Below, piece after piece: positions 4,134-13,640 of a DNA stretch of 51,251 bases. This DNA comes from a virus (lineage: Duplodnaviria; Heunggongvirae; Uroviricota; Caudoviricetes). The notes under the pieces are model-generated. The model worked only from the letters and a program-made list of their open reading frames with translations, made no database searches and was not told where the DNA came from. The first letter of the stretch is position 1, and every line of letters begins with the position of its first letter. The translations under genes were made by a program, and so were the position numbers. The stretch spans positions 1-51,251 of the IMG/VR virus record IMGVR_UViG_2870495154_000004; one strand, written 5' to 3'.

Positions 4134-5504
4134 ATGCTGAATCTTATCGTTGTCGGAACCCCCAAATACTACACTTTTTTTTCTGAACCCAGTGGCAATG
4201 ACTCTTTCCCTGTGTCGCGACTCTTCGAATCCACGCCAGAGTCTCTTAGAAGCAGATTGCTTCCCCTGACTGAAAAAACCTATCATTTTCTTCAGGAACT
4301 GCCCGTTGTATTTATGTCCGAGCCGGAAATTGAATTCGATGAAGATAATGAAAAAATAGGTTATTTCAGCCACATCCGCTTAGGAAAAATCAGCAAGATA
4401 AGTACGTCCGTGTATAACAGAGAAAAAGTTTTAGCGTTTGATTATGAGATTACCAGTGATATCGGCTACAAGCCCTTAACCAGCGATAAAGAGTACGTAA
4501 GTGAGCTGGAGCTGGGCAGTTTCGGACTAAACAGAACGTTCTGGGCGGTCAAAGAGATTTCCGTAAATGAGATTCTGCGTGTTTTAGGCCTTGAAGGCTA
4601 TTCTAATGTTGAGCCCGCAGCAGCGAGTGCGGAAGCACCGGAGAATAATGAAGAACTAGAGATCATTGCGAATATCAATCAGTACTTGCAGGTGATACTC
4701 GATCATACACAGGGAAACGATGAAGAGGTATTTTACCGCGGTCACTCGGACATCAACTACCAACTGGAACCCTCACTGTTCCGCAAGGATACTCAGGGTA
4801 ACTATCGCTACCGCCATCACGAATCGGACATGATAACAGAGCTGCTGACCGTGCAGCCCGCCGAGTTCAAAGACGATCGGTATATGCTAGATAAACTCGT
4901 GCGCATGCAACACTATGGCCTACCCACACGCCTGCTTGATGTATCAACAAACCCCTTGATCGCACTATATTTTGCCTGCTCTAAAATCAAGCACGATGAA
5001 AATAATCATGAAATTGACGGGAACGTCATTATTCTGACGACGCCCAAAAGTGAAATTAAGTTTTTCGACTCGGATACCGTAAGTTGCATAGCCAATCTTT
5101 CCCGTCTTCCCTCTCGTTTCAAAAGCAGCCTGAAAACTAATCTCACCATTCCGGCGTTTAACGAATCTGAAGAGTGCGGACAACTACTACACCTGATCCG
5201 CGATGAAAAGTCCTATTTCAAAAGCATCATCGATCCGGTCCACCTAAGTAAAATTGTTGTGGTCAAAGGTCGGCTCAGTAACGCACGTATTTCGTCCCAA
5301 TCAGGCGCTTTCCTGCTCTTTGGTGAAAACGTAGACCTACCGGAAACGGGACTCAGTACGCTGAACATCAAAAAGCTTGTTATTAGAAACAAAGAGCATC
5401 TGATGCAGCAACTGAGCCGCCTTGGCATTAACGAAAGCACGGTGTACCCCGGCATTGAGAAGGCTGCTACGGAAATTGCAAAACTATACGATGGACGAAT
5501 CTGA
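4134..5504 (+). CDS. FRG-domain protein with an uncharacterised N-terminal domain
   Basis: 456-aa ORF; C-terminal half carries the FRG signature (VFYRGHSD...YQLEPSLFR...QHYGLPTRLLDVSTNPLIALYFAC); SD-like GAGGA upstream. Confidence 0.6.
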   Translation: MLNLIVVGTPKYYTFFSEPSGNDSFPVSRLFESTPESLRSRLLPLTEKTYHFLQELPVVFMSEPEIEFDEDNEKIGYFSHIRLGKISKISTSVYNREKVLAFDYEITSDIGYKPLTSDKEYVSELELGSFGLNRTFWAVKEISVNEILRVLGLEGYSNVEPAAASAEAPENNEELEIIANINQYLQVILDHTQGNDEEVFYRGHSDINYQLEPSLFRKDTQGNYRYRHHESDMITELLTVQPAEFKDDRYMLDKLVRMQHYGLPTRLLDVSTNPLIALYFACSKIKHDENNHEIDGNVIILTTPKSEIKFFDSDTVSCIANLSRLPSRFKSSLKTNLTIPAFNESEECGQLLHLIRDEKSYFKSIIDPVHLSKIVVVKGRLSNARISSQSGAFLLFGENVDLPETGLSTLNIKKLVIRNKEHLMQQLSRLGINESTVYPGIEKAATEIAKLYDGRI

Positions 5505-5645
5505 TAGCGCTTTAGTCGCACGGCACGCCTGTGTGCCAGCGTGGGCCCATAGCCGCTTTAATCGCCGTGCAGAATGCAGTTTTCAGGTAACTTCAGAGAA
5601 ACAAGTGATCTCATTTCGTTGTATTTATTAGCTGCGGAGTCATTA

Positions 5646-6698
5646 ATGGAAAGAATCAAGAGGAATCCCGAACGATTTGAAGCCTTTGAGCTTTTTTCCT
5701 CGTTGGGCCAGATCTATAATTACGATATTAAAAACCCCGAGCACCAGGATGACTTTATACAAAAGGTCACCACGTCATTAATCGCTTCCCATCAGAATCC
5801 AATTCTGCTGAACGGGAAAAGAATAGAAAACCTATTTAAACACGTTTGCGCCGCACTGAACCACTGCCAGTTTCTTAAACAGGAAGACGCCGGAGACTTG
5901 ATGTCAGCCGATCCCGATCTGGTGGCACCTGACTATCGCATTATACTGAAGGATCGCCGTCAGATCTTTGTGGAAGTAAAAAACTTTAACGCGGATGACG
6001 TGGCTGACGATTATCGCCTGAAGAAATCGTACAGTGATAAGGTTGAAAAGTACGGTGAGCTCCATGGTATTCCAGTTTATTATGCCATCTACATCAGGAT
6101 GCTGCGCCGGTGGGCGCTGGTTGCACGCTCCTCAATGAAGGAGCTAGAGCGTGAACATACCTTGACGCAGGCCTCGGCGCTCGCAAAAAGTGAGATGTAC
6201 CTGCTGGGCGACCTATCGATAGCAACAGAACCCGATCTGGTTTTTGAGCTTATCCCCGACCGGACCAAAGAAGTTTCAGTTAGTCCCGAAGGCATCGCCC
6301 ATTTTACAATTGGCGAGATTAAAATTTACTGCAATGACAGACAAGTAACGGATAAATTTGAAATGAACACGGCGTTTCATCTGATGCGCTACGGAGAGTG
6401 GCTCTGCCCCGGATCGGAGGCAATATTCACTGATGGTCAGCTTGAGAGCATCCGATACACATTTTCCCCGGAAGACGACGAAAATTACAAAAGACAGGGT
6501 TTCGACTTTATAGGTACGCTGAGTTCGCTGGTCACGTCGGCCTTTAACGAGCAGACTGTACACGACAGCCAGATCAGGTCAGTTGACACCCGGCAGAATG
6601 TCAGACTTTTCACGGTAACCATCCCTGATGATTACAAAGGGGGAGGCCTGCCTCTGTGGCGTTTCTCAATGCGGCCAAACTATGAATTTACCGATTAA
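5646..6698 (+). CDS. PD-(D/E)xK nuclease-fold protein (restriction-endonuclease-like) with an unknown C-terminal domain
   Basis: ORF with GGAG 6 nt upstream of ATG 5646 (track ORF opens at 5574); motif order E...PD...(14 aa)...EVK in APDYRIILKDRRQIFVEVK. Confidence 0.5.
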   Translation: MERIKRNPERFEAFELFSSLGQIYNYDIKNPEHQDDFIQKVTTSLIASHQNPILLNGKRIENLFKHVCAALNHCQFLKQEDAGDLMSADPDLVAPDYRIILKDRRQIFVEVKNFNADDVADDYRLKKSYSDKVEKYGELHGIPVYYAIYIRMLRRWALVARSSMKELEREHTLTQASALAKSEMYLLGDLSIATEPDLVFELIPDRTKEVSVSPEGIAHFTIGEIKIYCNDRQVTDKFEMNTAFHLMRYGEWLCPGSEAIFTDGQLESIRYTFSPEDDENYKRQGFDFIGTLSSLVTSAFNEQTVHDSQIRSVDTRQNVRLFTVTIPDDYKGGGLPLWRFSMRPNYEFTD

Positions 6699-7174: not shown

Positions 7175-7990
7175 ATGATTGACGAAACCCCAAAATCAAC
7201 TTTACTTAAGCAAAAACGAGGCATGCAATTGAAAAAGATTAGGAAAATCAATAAAAAAATTATTGATGAATTGCTATCTCTTCGCGAATCAAGAGGAGCT
7301 ATAGAAGACTTCTCAATGTCTTTCCTACTAAATTTTGCAGAAAATTGTCGACTTATGCATTCACTTATTTCAACGAAAGATAAGAAAATAGATATTTATA
7401 AAACAGCATATCGACAATATTTTGTATTTCTAATCAGTTGCTGGGAAACATATTTTAGAGACGTTTTTGTTTTCGTGCATTCAGTTGATGAATCTAGAAT
7501 TACAACACTACTATCTAAAATGAGAACAGAAACATCTATCAATATAAACACTGAGATAAATCTATCAGAGTTATTGAGTAAAAGCTTTAACTTTCAAAAC
7601 TTAAACGACCTTGAAGAAGCATATAATGGCATGTGGGGTGAGAGTTTTTTAAACTACATATGTACAACTAATATATCTCCTTGCGGTCTGAGTGGCCAAA
7701 TTTCCCAAAGCTTATCGATAGAAAATATATTTCCAGACTGGAGAGCCCTCATAGAGGAAGCATTTTACATTAGGCACAAAGTGGTTCATGATGCAAACTT
7801 CAGACCTAAAGTCAACATTGAATTAATCAGTAAGGTAGAGGCTTTGTTTTTAATAATCCCACAATTTGCAACGCATATCATATCAGAAAGATTCAACTTA
7901 AAAAAAATCGTCATTTCAGATGGTAAAAATAACCATACCTATATTTTCAATATCAGTGATATATTATCTGATGATTGGGTTGTTAGTTGA
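7175..7990 (+). CDS. AT-rich hypothetical protein with HEPN-like Rx4H motif (candidate RNase / abortive-infection protein)
   Basis: 271-aa ORF in markedly AT-rich DNA; C-terminal motif YIRHKVVHD fits the HEPN Rx4-6H signature. Confidence 0.4.
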   Translation: MIDETPKSTLLKQKRGMQLKKIRKINKKIIDELLSLRESRGAIEDFSMSFLLNFAENCRLMHSLISTKDKKIDIYKTAYRQYFVFLISCWETYFRDVFVFVHSVDESRITTLLSKMRTETSININTEINLSELLSKSFNFQNLNDLEEAYNGMWGESFLNYICTTNISPCGLSGQISQSLSIENIFPDWRALIEEAFYIRHKVVHDANFRPKVNIELISKVEALFLIIPQFATHIISERFNLKKIVISDGKNNHTYIFNISDILSDDWVVS

Positions 7991-8229: not shown

Positions 8230-8584
8230 TCTTTTTCGCTTAGATTGTGTCTGGTTCTTTCGGCCACTCAATATCAGGTGCAGTTGATGTATCAACACGG
8301 TTCAGCAACACCCGATACTTTTTCCAGGCTTCCACCACCAGCACGACAAGATGCCGCATACAGTGACCCAGTCAGTCCAGTTTCCAGACAACCAGTGCGT
8401 CACCTTTTTGAAGGCGCTTTAAAGCGCGTTTTAATCCTGGTCGGTCTGTCTTTGTCCCGCTTAATTTATCTTCAAATATTTGTTCACATCCTGCACAAAC
8501 AAGAGCGTTTCGTTGCAGGTCTGTATTCTGGTCATTTGTTGATACCCTTACATAGCCAATCAGCACACTGAATCTCCCGTCCAA
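8230..8584 (-). pseudogene. pin: Pin/Gin-family serine DNA invertase remnant (frameshifted and truncated)
   Basis: first 70 aa ([23 protein letters not shown]...LVVWKLD) match Pin-type invertase N-terminus; premature TGA; invertase-like residues continue in another frame; C-terminal HTH missing. Confidence 0.65.
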
Positions 8585-8648: not shown

Positions 8649-8973
8649 GGTAAATCAGGCTTCTGGCGCATTACAGAAAAAACAGAACGGCGCAGATATT
8701 CCAGGAAAAGATACCTTCACCAAAAATATTGGTGCCTGCCGCGCATATAGCGCATGGCTGAATATTGGTGGCGATAGTCAGACCTGGACAACTGCACAAT
8801 TCATTTCGTGGCTGGAGAGTCAGGGGGCATTTAACCATCCTTATCATCCTTCCTCAAGTCGTTAATCGCGTGCGTAGCCAAACTCAATACATCAACATGT
8901 CGAAGCATGATCTGCCCTCCCATATACTGTTTTTATATACAGCGGTTGCACTTTAAAGGCAGATCAATAGCTG

Positions 8974-9801
8974 CTACGGAAAGGTAGACGGATTTGTTGG
9001 GATCGTGTCGCCATAGTACTTCCCGCCTGAACTGAATCGCCTGTTAAAGATATCCTGTTCAGACGCCGTGGCCTCTGCCATGGTCATACCTGCTGCAGTG
9101 AGATCGATAAAATGCCATCTGTAAAGGACGTATGAACGACACAAATTGTTCAGTAGCGTACCGAAACCGCTAGGTGACCCCCAAACCATATGGTCGTAGT
9201 AGGCAGTTGCGACAGCCATATCTGTGCCTGTTTTTGCTGACGCTTGAGATTTCAGGGCTGGATTACCCGTCAACCCTCCATCCAGACTGGCAATCAGCAA
9301 CTTATTATTAGATGGAGCTGAGTTATGCGACATCAACACTTCTACAGGGTTCTGGCTCGTCGATGACGGCTTATCTCGAGTAATACGATGATGCACAAAC
9401 ACTGCGAACTGATGATCATTCTGATGTGCAACAACGTACGGCAGGATGCCAGGGCAGCGGAACCGGGCCAGGTGGCCAGATACCTGATTGACCTGAGAGA
9501 CTATGCCATGAATACCAAGCTTTGGTGTTCTCTCAAACTTAACTTCAGTGCTACCAAGTGTGTTTGAATACTTAAAGGCCAAATCAGCCTGCGATACGCC
9601 AGTTAAAGTGGCGGCTGGAATCGCGGCTAAATTTGGCGTTGTCGATATATCAGTACCTGTCGCTGATAAATTAAAATTTTCATCTACTTCATAAGCATCC
9701 AGCAGCCCAAGAGACCCATCAGTTAACCCAGGGTACGGATAAAAAATAGGCATTCTTGAATCTGTAAAATTAGCTCCATATAAAGGATTGGCGCGGCCCA
9801 T
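8974..9801 (-). CDS. hypothetical protein downstream of the tail fibre gene (possible tail-fibre-associated protein; not Tfa-like)
   Basis: 275-aa ORF immediately following stf on the same strand; no motif recognised. Confidence 0.4.
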   Translation of the reverse strand: MGRANPLYGANFTDSRMPIFYPYPGLTDGSLGLLDAYEVDENFNLSATGTDISTTPNLAAIPAATLTGVSQADLAFKYSNTLGSTEVKFERTPKLGIHGIVSQVNQVSGHLARFRCPGILPYVVAHQNDHQFAVFVHHRITRDKPSSTSQNPVEVLMSHNSAPSNNKLLIASLDGGLTGNPALKSQASAKTGTDMAVATAYYDHMVWGSPSGFGTLLNNLCRSYVLYRWHFIDLTAAGMTMAEATASEQDIFNRRFSSGGKYYGDTIPTNPSTFP

Positions 9802-9811
9802 ATTTTACTCC

Positions 9812-12800
9812 TCAAAAGAAAAAGTTATTGTTAAGCATTCCTGCAAGACCTTCGCTGGATGATATTGTGGAAAAACCTGATCCACCATTCGCAAGCGCAA
9901 GACCACCTGTGTTACTAAGGTGTGTCCGGTCTATTGATTTTTCAGACCATACACCGCCATTATTGTAAATAATGTTTCCAACTGTTCCGCCACCTATCCT
10001 GATGTAGTAATCCATAGAACTACCACCAGTTGGTAATACTGTGTCACTCCATGTACCTTTGTATACCAGGTCGTTTGTTGTGAACCCTGTAAATGACCCG
10101 CCATTGAAAAATGACCAGGGTAGAACGCCATAAGTAACAGCAACTTGTTTTTCGGTCATGCCCGGGAAAGTAGGATCAATTGCGTCAGTAGCAGCAGAAA
10201 GCATATTTTGGTATACGTTAAAGAAACGTCCTGGAAATATTCTTCTGTACCATTCTCCAAGCTCGTAAAGAACACCCGTTTTAGCGTACTGGTCCTCATG
10301 CTGCTGTACAACAATTCTTGAACCGTTCCATGTCTCTGTCCTTTGCCCCATAATTGTCAGGAATATATATCTGGCATCCCTGGCCCCAACCAATGCAGCC
10401 ATTTCAATAGAATCCTGCCTGATTTGTGCAGCATTTAAATCAGTTGTCGGCTGGTTATTTTGTCCGTGCCAAAAGCAGATGACCTGTCCGGCATAATTAT
10501 CCCCGTTAACAAGAATTTCCTGCTTTAACATACCGAGGACCTGATCGGAAGTAGAGCCGCCATAGGAGCGGACCTCCCCGGGCACGCTCACCTCTGAAAG
10601 GATTTGGTTGCCGGAATTTCCACTGCCGAAAAGAGAATCCCCGATCAAGAGAAGCTTACTCCCAAGAGATTTACGGATTGTCGTCATCACCTGAGCTTTC
10701 AGCCTTACACCGACAGGGCCAGAGCTCTTATCAGAACGCCGAATTTCCCACTCGTCAGAGTTTTGACTACAACGTAGGCTGATAGAGCTGCCTGCAGCAA
10801 CAGTAACGGATGCCTGACCTGCTATGCGAATCCACGCGGAGCCATCCCAGAGAGCGTAATCTCCGGCAGAAAAACTATTTCCTGAAATGGTACCCGCTGC
10901 GGATGCCTGATAAACCGAATTACGCAGTGGACTAGCAGGATAACCAGAGGCAGGAGCAAACTCCCCTGCGTAAACCAGTGCATCACTGGCTGATGACAGC
11001 AATACCCATCGTGGAGTCATGGATGCGCCACCGGCAGTTTGCAGTCCTGTATAGAGCAATTTGTCCCCTGCCTGCAGCGCCATGCCGTTGAACGTCCCAG
11101 CAGCAGTCACCTCATACCAGCTGTCCGCGATTTTAATCACACCGGTGCCCGGCCCACGCTGGATGACGAACTCTGTACCATTCCAGACAAGATTGTCGCC
11201 GCAGTACAGGCTCTGACTGCCCCAGGTGCCCGGTAGTGTCTCGGAGAGGTTTCCGTTTGTGTTATAGGCCTCGTAGCTATAGTAATCACCGACAGCAAAC
11301 GTCCCTGTCGGCGTGGTAACTGCGGTGGTGAGAAACCGCCCTTTTTTCGTCAGCGATGGCACCGCGCCTGGCGTAAACACGCCAGCCCGCGCTTTCCCGG
11401 TGAACAGCAGCCCGCTGGCCTGCCGGTATTCAATCGCGGTGCCGGTCGCATTAATTCCGAATGCGGCCTTACACACATGCGACGGCAGCGGAGACCAGGC
11501 AGAGCCGTCGCGTGCATTGGTCCGCACCGCGATTTCGGAGAGCGTTGAGCGCGTTGCATCCGGGCGGGCATCTACAACATCCTGTGGGTGTGCAATAATT
11601 TTATTCTGTACATCTTCAGTCAGCGTTGAGAAGCCGACGATGTCATCACCCAACAGAAGACGAGAAATAAATACATCGCCATCTGTCGTCACATAGCTGG
11701 ACATCCGCTTTGTCACCGGATCATAGTCGACGCTGACATAACCAGTATCAGGGTCAAGGTCCAGTGGAATGACCTGCTGAACTTCTGTGGAAAGTTGTGA
11801 GTTCCCGACGCTATTCTCAGGGACCTGTAGCAAGGGAATAAAAACCTGTCCATCCGTTGTGGTATATGAAGACATACGTCTGGTTACCGGATCGTAGTTG
11901 ATTTCTGAAAACCCAGTATCAGGGTCCAGTTCCTGAGATAAAATACTTTGAACATCCAGCGAAAGTTTTTCTGAGCTTACTGAGCCATTTTGAATATTAT
12001 TTCCAGTGACTGCATTTTCAGATAATTGCAGCAAAGGGATAAACACACGACCATCACGCATAGTGAACTTAGACATGCGCATGGAAACTGGGTCATATTC
12101 AACATCAACAATATCGAGACCATCATCCAGCTCAGTTGAGATTAATCCCCTTGATGCAAGATCATCAATATACCCCTTGGAAATCATTACCCGGCCAGTG
12201 GCAGATAATATCCCTGAATTATTGATAACTTCTATTGCAAGATATTTGTAATCGGAGTCTCGGTAATAAGCTGTTGACCCAACAGGAATATTGCCAGCAT
12301 CTGCGTCTGCCTGTGCCGCCGCCAGCGTCGGAAACTCGCGGATTGTCCCAGTTATAGCCGCTGTGCCTGGCTCAGAAGCCTGCAACACAGCTACGCCATC
12401 CTGGTTCTCGTAGGTTTTGAATGCCGCCGTCGCTTCCGGACCTTCCGCTACGCGGAACGACTGTCCGTTGGTCGTAGCAGCAAGGCCTGCAATTGTACCG
12501 TCCGGATCGCTCGGCGTTTTATAGAACGTGAACTTATTCAGCGCATATTCAGAAGCATTGCTCGCGAACTCTTCGGCCTGAGAGGCAGAAATAGCAGCCT
12601 CTGCCGTGTTCTGTGCCACCGCGGACGCGTTACGCGCCACTTCTTCCACCATCAGCTCAAAACGGCGCAGTGCCTCCGGACGGGCATCATCCTCCGTCAT
12701 GGCACCGAGAAAATCATTCAGCGTACCGGGTCGGGAATCTTCATACACGGTGATAATTCCGGCATGTGACGGCGGGAATCCCTCCACCAACAGAATAACG

Positions 12801-12982
12801 CTGTACTGACCGTACTCAACGTCCATACTGTAACGCCCGGCTTCATCCGGATTTTCTGAGGCCACCGTGTTCGCCACCACCGTGGTGCTGTTACGTTTTG
12901 CTTTCAGCTGGATTGTGCAGTTCTGTACCGGTTTACCTGCACCGTCTTTCAGTACACCTGAAATCTTTACTGCCATATTCAC
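9812..12982 (-). CDS. stf: side tail fibre protein, lambda Stf-like N-terminus, three internal tandem repeats, C-terminal GDSL/SGNH-like hydrolase motif
   Basis: first ~120 aa match lambda Stf; three ~35-aa repeats (DYDPVTxRMSSYxTTDGxVFIPLLQ); motif LLLIGDSLFGSGNS near residue 780. Confidence 0.8.
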   Translation of the reverse strand: MNMAVKISGVLKDGAGKPVQNCTIQLKAKRNSTTVVANTVASENPDEAGRYSMDVEYGQYSVILLVEGFPPSHAGIITVYEDSRPGTLNDFLGAMTEDDARPEALRRFELMVEEVARNASAVAQNTAEAAISASQAEEFASNASEYALNKFTFYKTPSDPDGTIAGLAATTNGQSFRVAEGPEATAAFKTYENQDGVAVLQASEPGTAAITGTIREFPTLAAAQADADAGNIPVGSTAYYRDSDYKYLAIEVINNSGILSATGRVMISKGYIDDLASRGLISTELDDGLDIVDVEYDPVSMRMSKFTMRDGRVFIPLLQLSENAVTGNNIQNGSVSSEKLSLDVQSILSQELDPDTGFSEINYDPVTRRMSSYTTTDGQVFIPLLQVPENSVGNSQLSTEVQQVIPLDLDPDTGYVSVDYDPVTKRMSSYVTTDGDVFISRLLLGDDIVGFSTLTEDVQNKIIAHPQDVVDARPDATRSTLSEIAVRTNARDGSAWSPLPSHVCKAAFGINATGTAIEYRQASGLLFTGKARAGVFTPGAVPSLTKKGRFLTTAVTTPTGTFAVGDYYSYEAYNTNGNLSETLPGTWGSQSLYCGDNLVWNGTEFVIQRGPGTGVIKIADSWYEVTAAGTFNGMALQAGDKLLYTGLQTAGGASMTPRWVLLSSASDALVYAGEFAPASGYPASPLRNSVYQASAAGTISGNSFSAGDYALWDGSAWIRIAGQASVTVAAGSSISLRCSQNSDEWEIRRSDKSSGPVGVRLKAQVMTTIRKSLGSKLLLIGDSLFGSGNSGNQILSEVSVPGEVRSYGGSTSDQVLGMLKQEILVNGDNYAGQVICFWHGQNNQPTTDLNAAQIRQDSIEMAALVGARDARYIFLTIMGQRTETWNGSRIVVQQHEDQYAKTGVLYELGEWYRRIFPGRFFNVYQNMLSAATDAIDPTFPGMTEKQVAVTYGVLPWSFFNGGSFTGFTTNDLVYKGTWSDTVLPTGGSSMDYYIRIGGGTVGNIIYNNGGVWSEKSIDRTHLSNTGGLALANGGSGFSTISSSEGLAGMLNNNFFF

Positions 12983-13040
12983 CCCACAAAAAAGCCCGCC
13001 TGAACCAGCGGGCTGTCATAACACTGTGTTACCTGGCTAA

Positions 13041-13640
13041 TCAGAACTTATAACCGACACCCACGATGAAACCGTCAGTGCGCCAGTCGCCACTGCCGGA
13101 GCCTTCATAAGCAATATCAATGGCCACGGATTCGGTCGGGTTAAACTGCACGCCAGCCCCCCACGCCAGAGACGTGTTGCTGCGGCGACCATCATCACTT
13201 CCGGTCAGCACTTCGTGCGTTTTCCCCTTGTTGTCAGTTACGCGGAGATAATCCCCGGAGAAAGTCGAAATACGGCTGTAAGCCACACCCGCCATCGCAT
13301 ACGCGCTGAACCATTCATTCACGCGCACAGACGGCCCCGCCATCACGCTGAACCAGCGGTTACGCACGGAATCTTCATGCCAGCGGGTATCGCTGTAACG
13401 GGTAAGCTGGCGATTCTTGTCTTCTGCATAGCTGAATGACGTCACCATCCCCAGCGTGTCCGTAAACTCATAACGGTATTTCATGTTAATCCCGTTAAGA
13501 TCATCGCTGCCGGGAACGTTCGTCGAGGCATGAAGATACCCCGCGCTTAGCGTGGACTGATGTTCAGACGCCCATGCAGGCGCACCGGATACGACCAGAC
13601 AGATGGCTGCGGACAAAATGGCTGCACAAACTTTACGCAT
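13041..13640 (-). CDS. lom: Lom/Ail family outer-membrane protein
   Basis: 199 aa with signal peptide; C-terminal [23 protein letters not shown] matches lambda Lom. Confidence 0.85.

Follow-up and report, generated by a model that had tools for sequence, protein, structure and literature searches.

A lambda-anchored side tail fibre of an Escherichia coli prophage with a Klebsiella-shared body and a predicted SGNH-hydrolase-fold head

Where the body of the side tail fibre in this prophage comes from, and whether its distal end is an enzyme or a binding head, are the questions raised by this locus. The window analysed here is the whole 51,251-nt stretch of the IMG/VR record IMGVR_UViG_2870495154_000004, and all features given below by position lie on its (-) strand. 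The Stf-like side tail fibre gene (9812..12982) is an uninterrupted open reading frame of 1056 aa when counted from the GTG at 12982. The real start is likely the ATG at 12976 (MAVKISG...), which has a GGGGTGA Shine-Dalgarno sequence 5' of it and would give a protein of 1054 aa. A scan for promoters and terminators returned a terminator-like hairpin after lom, between lom and the fibre start, and nothing besides. The gene follows J and Lom in a lambdoid prophage located at a tRNA-Thr next to proA, which keeps its integrase, repressor, Q, lysis, terminase, portal, capsid and tail genes and is apparently complete. The 4,009-nt segment holding the fibre gene and its downstream partner gene (window 8974-12982) is 100% identical to E. 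coli CREC-532 (NZ_CP024830.1).

In the RefSeq annotation of the identical CREC-532 region, produced by PGAP, the fibre is recorded only as an N-terminal 'partial' pseudogene, 'incomplete; missing C-terminus', and this label would favour the view that a decaying prophage has left the gene as a non-functional relic. Downstream of the cassette, the ORF list and the RefSeq annotation of the identical region place the remnants of a displaced ancestral module (8240..8584), which consist of a 70-aa N-terminal fragment of a serine invertase (8372-8584) and a fragment of a tail-fibre-assembly (Tfa) gene (~8240-8344). Since these broken pieces lie there, this end of the prophage has been rearranged. The truncated fragments also agree with decay, as does a second E. 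coli genome, H27, in which the gene is split by an IS3 element. However, the 3171-nt frame is open, the fibre body is 95% identical in protein sequence to intact Klebsiella copies, Shine-Dalgarno sequences stand ahead of both the fibre and the partner genes, and the integrase, repressor, Q, lysis, packaging, head and tail genes are retained. A relic is thus considered very unlikely, and the PGAP pseudogene label looks like an annotation artefact.

The first-pass annotation had described the gene as a chimera of a lambda Stf anchor and a foreign body, which was borne out by both protein and DNA comparisons. The N-terminal anchor domain (aa 3-136, 12575..12976) matched PF08400 'Prophage tail fibre N-terminal' in Pfam with an E value of 2.2e-70 and shows ~90% identity to a 94-residue chain of known structure named 'Tail fiber protein' (PDB 9e7m). 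Among the phage DNA in INPHARED, lambdoid similarity, found in many phages at 95-98% identity, is confined to nt 1-382 of the gene, and similarity to E. coli prophage DNA extends to gene nt ~709-770. Klebsiella DNA similarity begins at window 12559 (aa ~142). This point falls within a shaft module (aa ~117-276, 12155..12634) which matches PHROG 19652/38670/31000, is common to E. coli and Klebsiella fibres, and is the probable recombination zone. Because lambdoid similarity ends and Klebsiella similarity starts there, the fibre gene is, as judged from these alignments, a recombinant whose seam lies in the shaft segment common to both lineages, just after the PF08400 anchor. The collection of 232 proteins and 54 loci contains a single copy with a lambda-type anchor at high identity, that of CREC-532. 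The resemblance to the lambda Stf/Tfa system is restricted to the PF08400 anchor and the position after J and lom, whereas past aa ~140-250 the present fibre is unrelated to lambda Stf and has no OmpC-binding distal part, and instead of an adjacent intact Tfa gene there is the tfa fragment only.

The foreign part was traced by blastn to a 3.6-kb cassette (8926..12559), which comprises the fibre from aa ~142 to its end together with a 275-aa ORF and is 94.4% identical in DNA to a K. pneumoniae prophage, the identity running to 48 nt beyond the 275-aa gene (8926). This prophage is of the myovirus type, with a contractile-tail baseplate (Baseplate_J, Phage_Wedge1, sheath initiator). Over aa 440-1056, copies at 85-100% identity are frequent, for the most part in genomes of K. 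pneumoniae, and their N-termini are of several kinds. The fibre body was found in only 3 of 5,426 complete E. coli genomes; one of these copies lies in a myovirus-type prophage near bioA, and another is the interrupted one of H27. At a larger distance, Mydovirus phages such as KpS8, Seu621 and KB57 have a 'tail spike protein' to which the distal 662 aa show 57% identity. The fibre homologues sit in tail and baseplate gene clusters.

Three repeats of ~35 aa had been proposed within the body. Three diverged tandem repeats are real at the protein level (aa 283-465, 11588..12136), but they recur at intervals of 67 and 57 aa and share a conserved core of ~45-52 aa. The cores (DPV..RMS) are located at aa 297, 364 and 421 and gave pairwise local BLOSUM62 scores of 91-157; no tandem repeat was found at the DNA level over this region. 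The middle region that follows (aa 466-769, 10676..11587) gave no Pfam or PHROG match and is conserved with the distal module, being kept in distant homologues from aa ~300-350 on. Four 'G..f..GD.l.w.G' motifs (aa 565, 595, 639 and 707) were noticed in it by eye, without statistical support. A BLAST self-comparison of aa 440-1056 showed no significant internal repeats.

The C-terminal domain (aa ~770-1056, 9815..10675) is predicted to have the SGNH-hydrolase fold. The motif positions reported earlier are exact (GDS at 10634-10642, LLLIGDSLFGSGNS at 10613-10654, HGQNN at aa 839-843, 10454-10468), but that inventory, correct in its GDS and HGQNN blocks, had overlooked two further blocks. Conservation was counted over 188 unique family sequences, down to ~19% identity. 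Block I (G781-D782-S783, 10634..10642) contains the putative nucleophile Ser783, which aligns with S10 of TesA and is kept in 166/166 sequences, with D782 kept in 164/166. Block II (G808-G809, 10556..10561), one of the two missed before, contains a putative oxyanion-hole Gly, aligned with TesA G44 and retained as Gly809 in 153 of 168 sequences. Block III (G840-Q-N842-N843, 10454..10465) is of the GxND type, and its putative oxyanion-hole residue Asn842, opposite TesA N73, is present in all but one of 168. Block V (D1018-R-T-H1021, 9920..9931), the other block missed, would supply the catalytic Asp and His, an assignment made from conservation (159/166 for Asp1018, 165/166 for His1021) and position. 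In an alignment of 13 diverse homologues (47-83% identity to the query), D782-S783, G786, G808-G809, G840-Q-N842-N843 and D1018..H1021 are invariant.

HMM searches for SGNH/GDSL families, which had been suggested as a check of this assignment, failed, as standard libraries detected nothing in the distal part. Pfam (Lipase_GDSL, Lipase_GDSL_2 and SASA), NCBIfam and PHROG gave no match on aa 440-1056 even at E<=10, and scans of the distal 617 and 317 aa with Pfam, NCBIfam, PHROG and PADLOC gave nothing useful. A phmmer search of PDB with the C-terminal domain returned no match, and the C-terminal profile reached only E 0.24 in PDB, to an SGNH-fold-like designed protein. When 1.84 billion representative proteins were searched exhaustively with a profile, only 107 clusters were obtained, nearly all of 600-1400 aa and matched at their C-terminal end, and there was no strong match outside the C-terminal end of long proteins. 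When the family profile was compared with E. coli TesA (a sequence identical to PDB 1ivn) by local hhalign, S783, G809 and N842 fell opposite S10, G44 and N73, with weak values (E 0.009, probability 4.7%). Blocks I-III are in register with TesA in this comparison, and block V remained outside the alignment because of an insertion before it. Sequence comparison by itself would thus give weak evidence for SGNH membership.

The structure prediction of the C-terminal ~300 aa, also suggested earlier, recovered the SGNH fold. The AlphaFold2 model of aa 740-1056 (pLDDT 86, pTM 0.83) has the three-layer alpha/beta/alpha arrangement expected of SGNH/GDSL hydrolases, and a Foldseek search with it returned SGNH/GDSL hydrolases only (best E 9e-6), the first 43 matches being all SGNH. 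In the model, Ser783 is placed where strand 38-42 gives way to helix 44-48, and block V lies just ahead of the C-terminal helix 285-293, which fits the canonical SGNH layout. The beta-rich insertion ahead of block V (aa ~934-1017) is atypical for SGNH proteins. Identity to E. coli TesA/TAP (PDB 1ivn) and to the GDSL esterases 4rsh, 4rw0 and 1yzf is 10-18%, and the present domain differs from them by this insertion, a ~35-aa C-terminal tail and its embedding in a fibre. Because the motifs are invariant across the family and the fold matches as well, they are more than a chance occurrence, and the predicted model together with the residue counts gives good support to an SGNH fold and catalytic residue set in the fibre C-terminus. 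The original SGNH/GDSL assignment is therefore upheld by four almost invariant blocks and by a predicted fold that matches SGNH hydrolases only.

A domain with this fold might still be a catalytically dead carbohydrate-binding head that serves receptor binding only. The silence of the standard SGNH HMMs, the unusual beta insertion and a block III reading GQNN rather than GxND would agree with such a head. However, a pure binding domain is not expected to retain the whole catalytic set, and down to ~19% identity Ser783, Asn842 and His1021 persist in 165-167 of 166-168 sequences and Asp1018 in 159/166. A dead head is hence regarded as quite unlikely, and an active esterase is the reading followed below.

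A gap of 10 nt separates the fibre stop codon from the 275-aa ORF (8974..9801), which has GAGGAG as its Shine-Dalgarno sequence and is probably translationally coupled to the fibre gene. This ORF had been noted as an unknown one standing in place of a typical Tfa gene; it does follow the fibre and is not Tfa, but rather than a random unknown it is a conserved partner. Of the 54 fibre-family loci collected (44 IMG/VR contigs included), 50 have room for it, and 46 of these carry a homologue as the next gene downstream of the fibre. The linked loci include Siphonobacter and Flectobacillus (Bacteroidota) as well as Marinibacterium and a Geminicoccaceae MAG (Alphaproteobacteria), and a further weak match is present in a Spirosoma locus. 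Copies with 98-99% identity to the ORF occur in hundreds of K. pneumoniae contigs. The divergence of fibre and ORF from the window copies is correlated with a Pearson coefficient of 0.98 (n=47, the samples not being independent), and the conserved unit is made up of fibre aa ~300-1056 and the 275-aa ORF.

The protein is predicted to be a lectin/CBM-like beta-sandwich with a C-terminal helix. It gave no Pfam, NCBIfam or PADLOC match, and its family profile found only spurious ribosomal protein matches in PDB. Identification as a known defence or Tfa protein was rejected after no matches to either were obtained, and a duplicate of the fibre C-terminus was rejected for want of similarity. Residues H98, H110, H126, H130, E90, R91, D233 and K261 are near-invariant in the family. 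We infer that this protein, encoded where Tfa would be expected, is a dedicated partner of the fibre and serves as a subunit at its tip or helps in its assembly. Because so many His, Arg, Asp and Glu residues are near-invariant, the partner could, from its sequence, itself be catalytic. It is tentatively possible that fibre body (aa ~300-1056) and partner form an obligate two-component receptor module, an SGNH esterase with a lectin-like or enzymatic companion, which would have been passed on as a unit in lineages ranging from Enterobacterales to Bacteroidota and Alphaproteobacteria and which escapes current HMM libraries. Discussion of the partner gene was not found in the SGNH-fibre literature examined.

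The adsorption apparatus of phage G7C, an N4-like podovirus, is branched; in its tailspike gp63.1 the SGNH domain is presumably not a C-terminal one with a beta insertion, and gp63.1 is not known to have a 275-aa partner gene. An SGNH domain inside a virion fibre or spike, as in the gp63.1 type, is also predicted for the present protein. The present domain shares 13% identity with this O-antigen deacetylase tailspike (PDB 4qnl). It has been reported that SGNH tail fibres occur in Klebsiella prophages, with examples active on pNPA (PMC13123978). Like these, the present fibre ends in an SGNH domain instead of a beta-helix depolymerase, but its body is attached to a lambda Stf anchor and it belongs to a siphovirus-type prophage of E. 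coli. Furthermore, the two active Klebsiella fibres, 174_38 and 164_08, are members of subfamilies that Pfam detects (Lipase_GDSL_2 and SASA), whereas the present domain is detected by no HMM library, and motif searches in the supplements of PMC13123978 gave no match to the present fibre. Since the tested Klebsiella fibres belong to other SGNH subfamilies, their esterase activity cannot be transferred by homology. By analogy, an enzymatic receptor-modifying fibre, as proposed in the first-pass annotation, nevertheless fits the published phage SGNH fibres (PMC13123978; G7C gp63.1, PDB 4qnl) and is supported by them.

The substrate of such an enzyme would most naturally be a surface polysaccharide. 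An alternative is an active enzyme acting on a non-polysaccharide ester, i.e., an LPS lipid, an outer-membrane phospholipid or a peptidoglycan O-acetyl group. The fold matches do include lysophospholipases, acyloxyacyl hydrolase, and peptidoglycan O-acetylesterases and O-acetyltransferases, but carbohydrate acetyl-esterases (CE2, CE3, CE16, sialate and xylan esterases) are equally prominent among them. The near-identical cassettes in E. coli and Klebsiella, and the report that the same SGNH receptor-binding protein is found in strains with different K loci (PMC12115436), hint at a target which is not K-type-specific. Against a lipid or peptidoglycan target, the distal fibre domain meets the polysaccharide layer first, and the one phage receptor-binding protein of the SGNH kind that has been characterised, G7C gp63.1, deacetylates a polysaccharide, as cited in PMC13123978. 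A non-polysaccharide ester is accordingly judged unlikely. From the near-identical copies in both genera it is also tentatively possible that the target is an acetylated glycan common to E. coli and Klebsiella rather than a K-type-specific capsule.

The reading we prefer, with a probability of roughly 70%, is a modular fibre in which a lambda anchor, a Klebsiella-shared body and an SGNH esterase head that deacetylates surface polysaccharide are combined. It builds on the architecture, fold, residue conservation, cassette origin and gene linkage described above. In this proposal, the lambda Stf anchor (aa 1-~140) would mount the fibre on a lambda-type tail tip, and homologous recombination in the common shaft segment would have joined this anchor to the ~900-aa body and the partner gene. 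The cassette is also in circulation among Klebsiella prophages of the myovirus type and among virulent phages of the Mydovirus group. The distal domain would be an SGNH-fold serine esterase using Ser783, Gly809, Asn842, Asp1018 and His1021, whose heads would bind an O-acetylated surface polysaccharide (capsule or O-antigen) and strip its acetyl groups. Deacetylation would then allow reversible, processive attachment, as shown for G7C gp63.1, before J engages the membrane receptor. The 275-aa beta-sandwich protein would act with the fibre, as a lectin-like tip subunit or as a dedicated assembly factor replacing Tfa. Catalytic activity, substrate and partner role are what we infer from these likenesses.

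Deacetylating SGNH fibres are already established, and the present case brings no new principle. Particular to it are the lambda Stf anchor, the cross-genus cassette, an SGNH subfamily invisible to HMMs and an almost universally linked partner gene. The subfamily and its linked partner are hereby exposed, Pfam, PHROGs and NCBIfam having models for neither. With the gene mis-annotated by PGAP as a truncated pseudogene, surveys of E. coli prophages probably count too few such fibres. The locus documents a recent swap of a whole enzymatic receptor-binding cassette across genera and tail types, the donor being a Klebsiella prophage of the myovirus type or a Mydovirus and the recipient a lambda-type siphovirus of E. 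coli. Such a swap and the location of its seam can help in predicting host range and in engineering new specificities into lambda-based particles.

Downstream of the cassette that carries the fibre body and the 275-aa partner ORF, two gene remnants were found on the window, namely a fragment of a tail-fibre-assembly gene (approximately 8240-8344) and a 70-aa N-terminal fragment of a Pin/Hin-like serine invertase (8372-8584, minus strand). These fragments (8240-8584) are the remains of an ancestral invertible stf/tfa module which was displaced by the cassette. On the upstream side, an intact gene for a Lom/Ail outer-membrane protein (13041-13640, minus strand; PF06316, E = 4.5e-122) is followed by a terminator-like hairpin (12993-13014) immediately upstream of the fibre gene.

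Relatives of the cassette were located in other genomic settings. In E. coli Eco_70239 (NZ_CM160040.1), a myovirus-type prophage ends with the same fibre body and the 275-aa ORF, directly next to ybhB-bioA, the part of the chromosome that harbours the classical lambda attachment site. In the Mydovirus Klebsiella phage Seu621 (11023-12877), an SGNH "tail spike" is followed by two consecutive 828-nt ORFs; only the first of them matches the 275-aa partner family, and the second is annotated as "L-shaped tail fiber".

The middle region of the fibre (aa 466-769; window 10676-11587) contains four loose repeats of the form G..f..GD.l.w.G..W, with GD at aa 565, 595, 639 and 707. Self-BLAST of aa 440-1056 yielded no significant match. 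The beta insertion of the fibre's SGNH domain shows a strand pattern resembling that of this region, and the GD motifs may represent a small, repeated beta module.

Beyond the fibre genes lies a cargo region of low GC content (33-47%), which includes a plus-strand gene encoding a 456-aa FRG-domain protein (4134-5504). With E = 8e-99, this protein matches PDC-S15, which PADLOC lists as a candidate defence system. The FRG gene is flanked by two large plus-strand ORFs of 543 aa (919-2550) and 374 aa (5574-6698), for which Pfam and PADLOC searches returned no match. A 271-aa ORF (7175-7990, plus strand) shows a sub-threshold match to HEPN_RiboL-PSP (E = 1e-5; 25.9 bits versus a cut-off of 28.4) and may be a further defence or toxin gene of this region.

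In the RefSeq record of E. coli CREC-532 (NZ_CP024830.1), the entry for the fibre gene (window 9812-12982) spans just the first ~445 nt (1972864-1973308) and is labelled by PGAP as [quoted passage not shown], leaving about 2.7 kb of the intact ORF without annotation. This partial call looks like an annotation artefact, and artefacts of this type would conceal such fibres from surveys.
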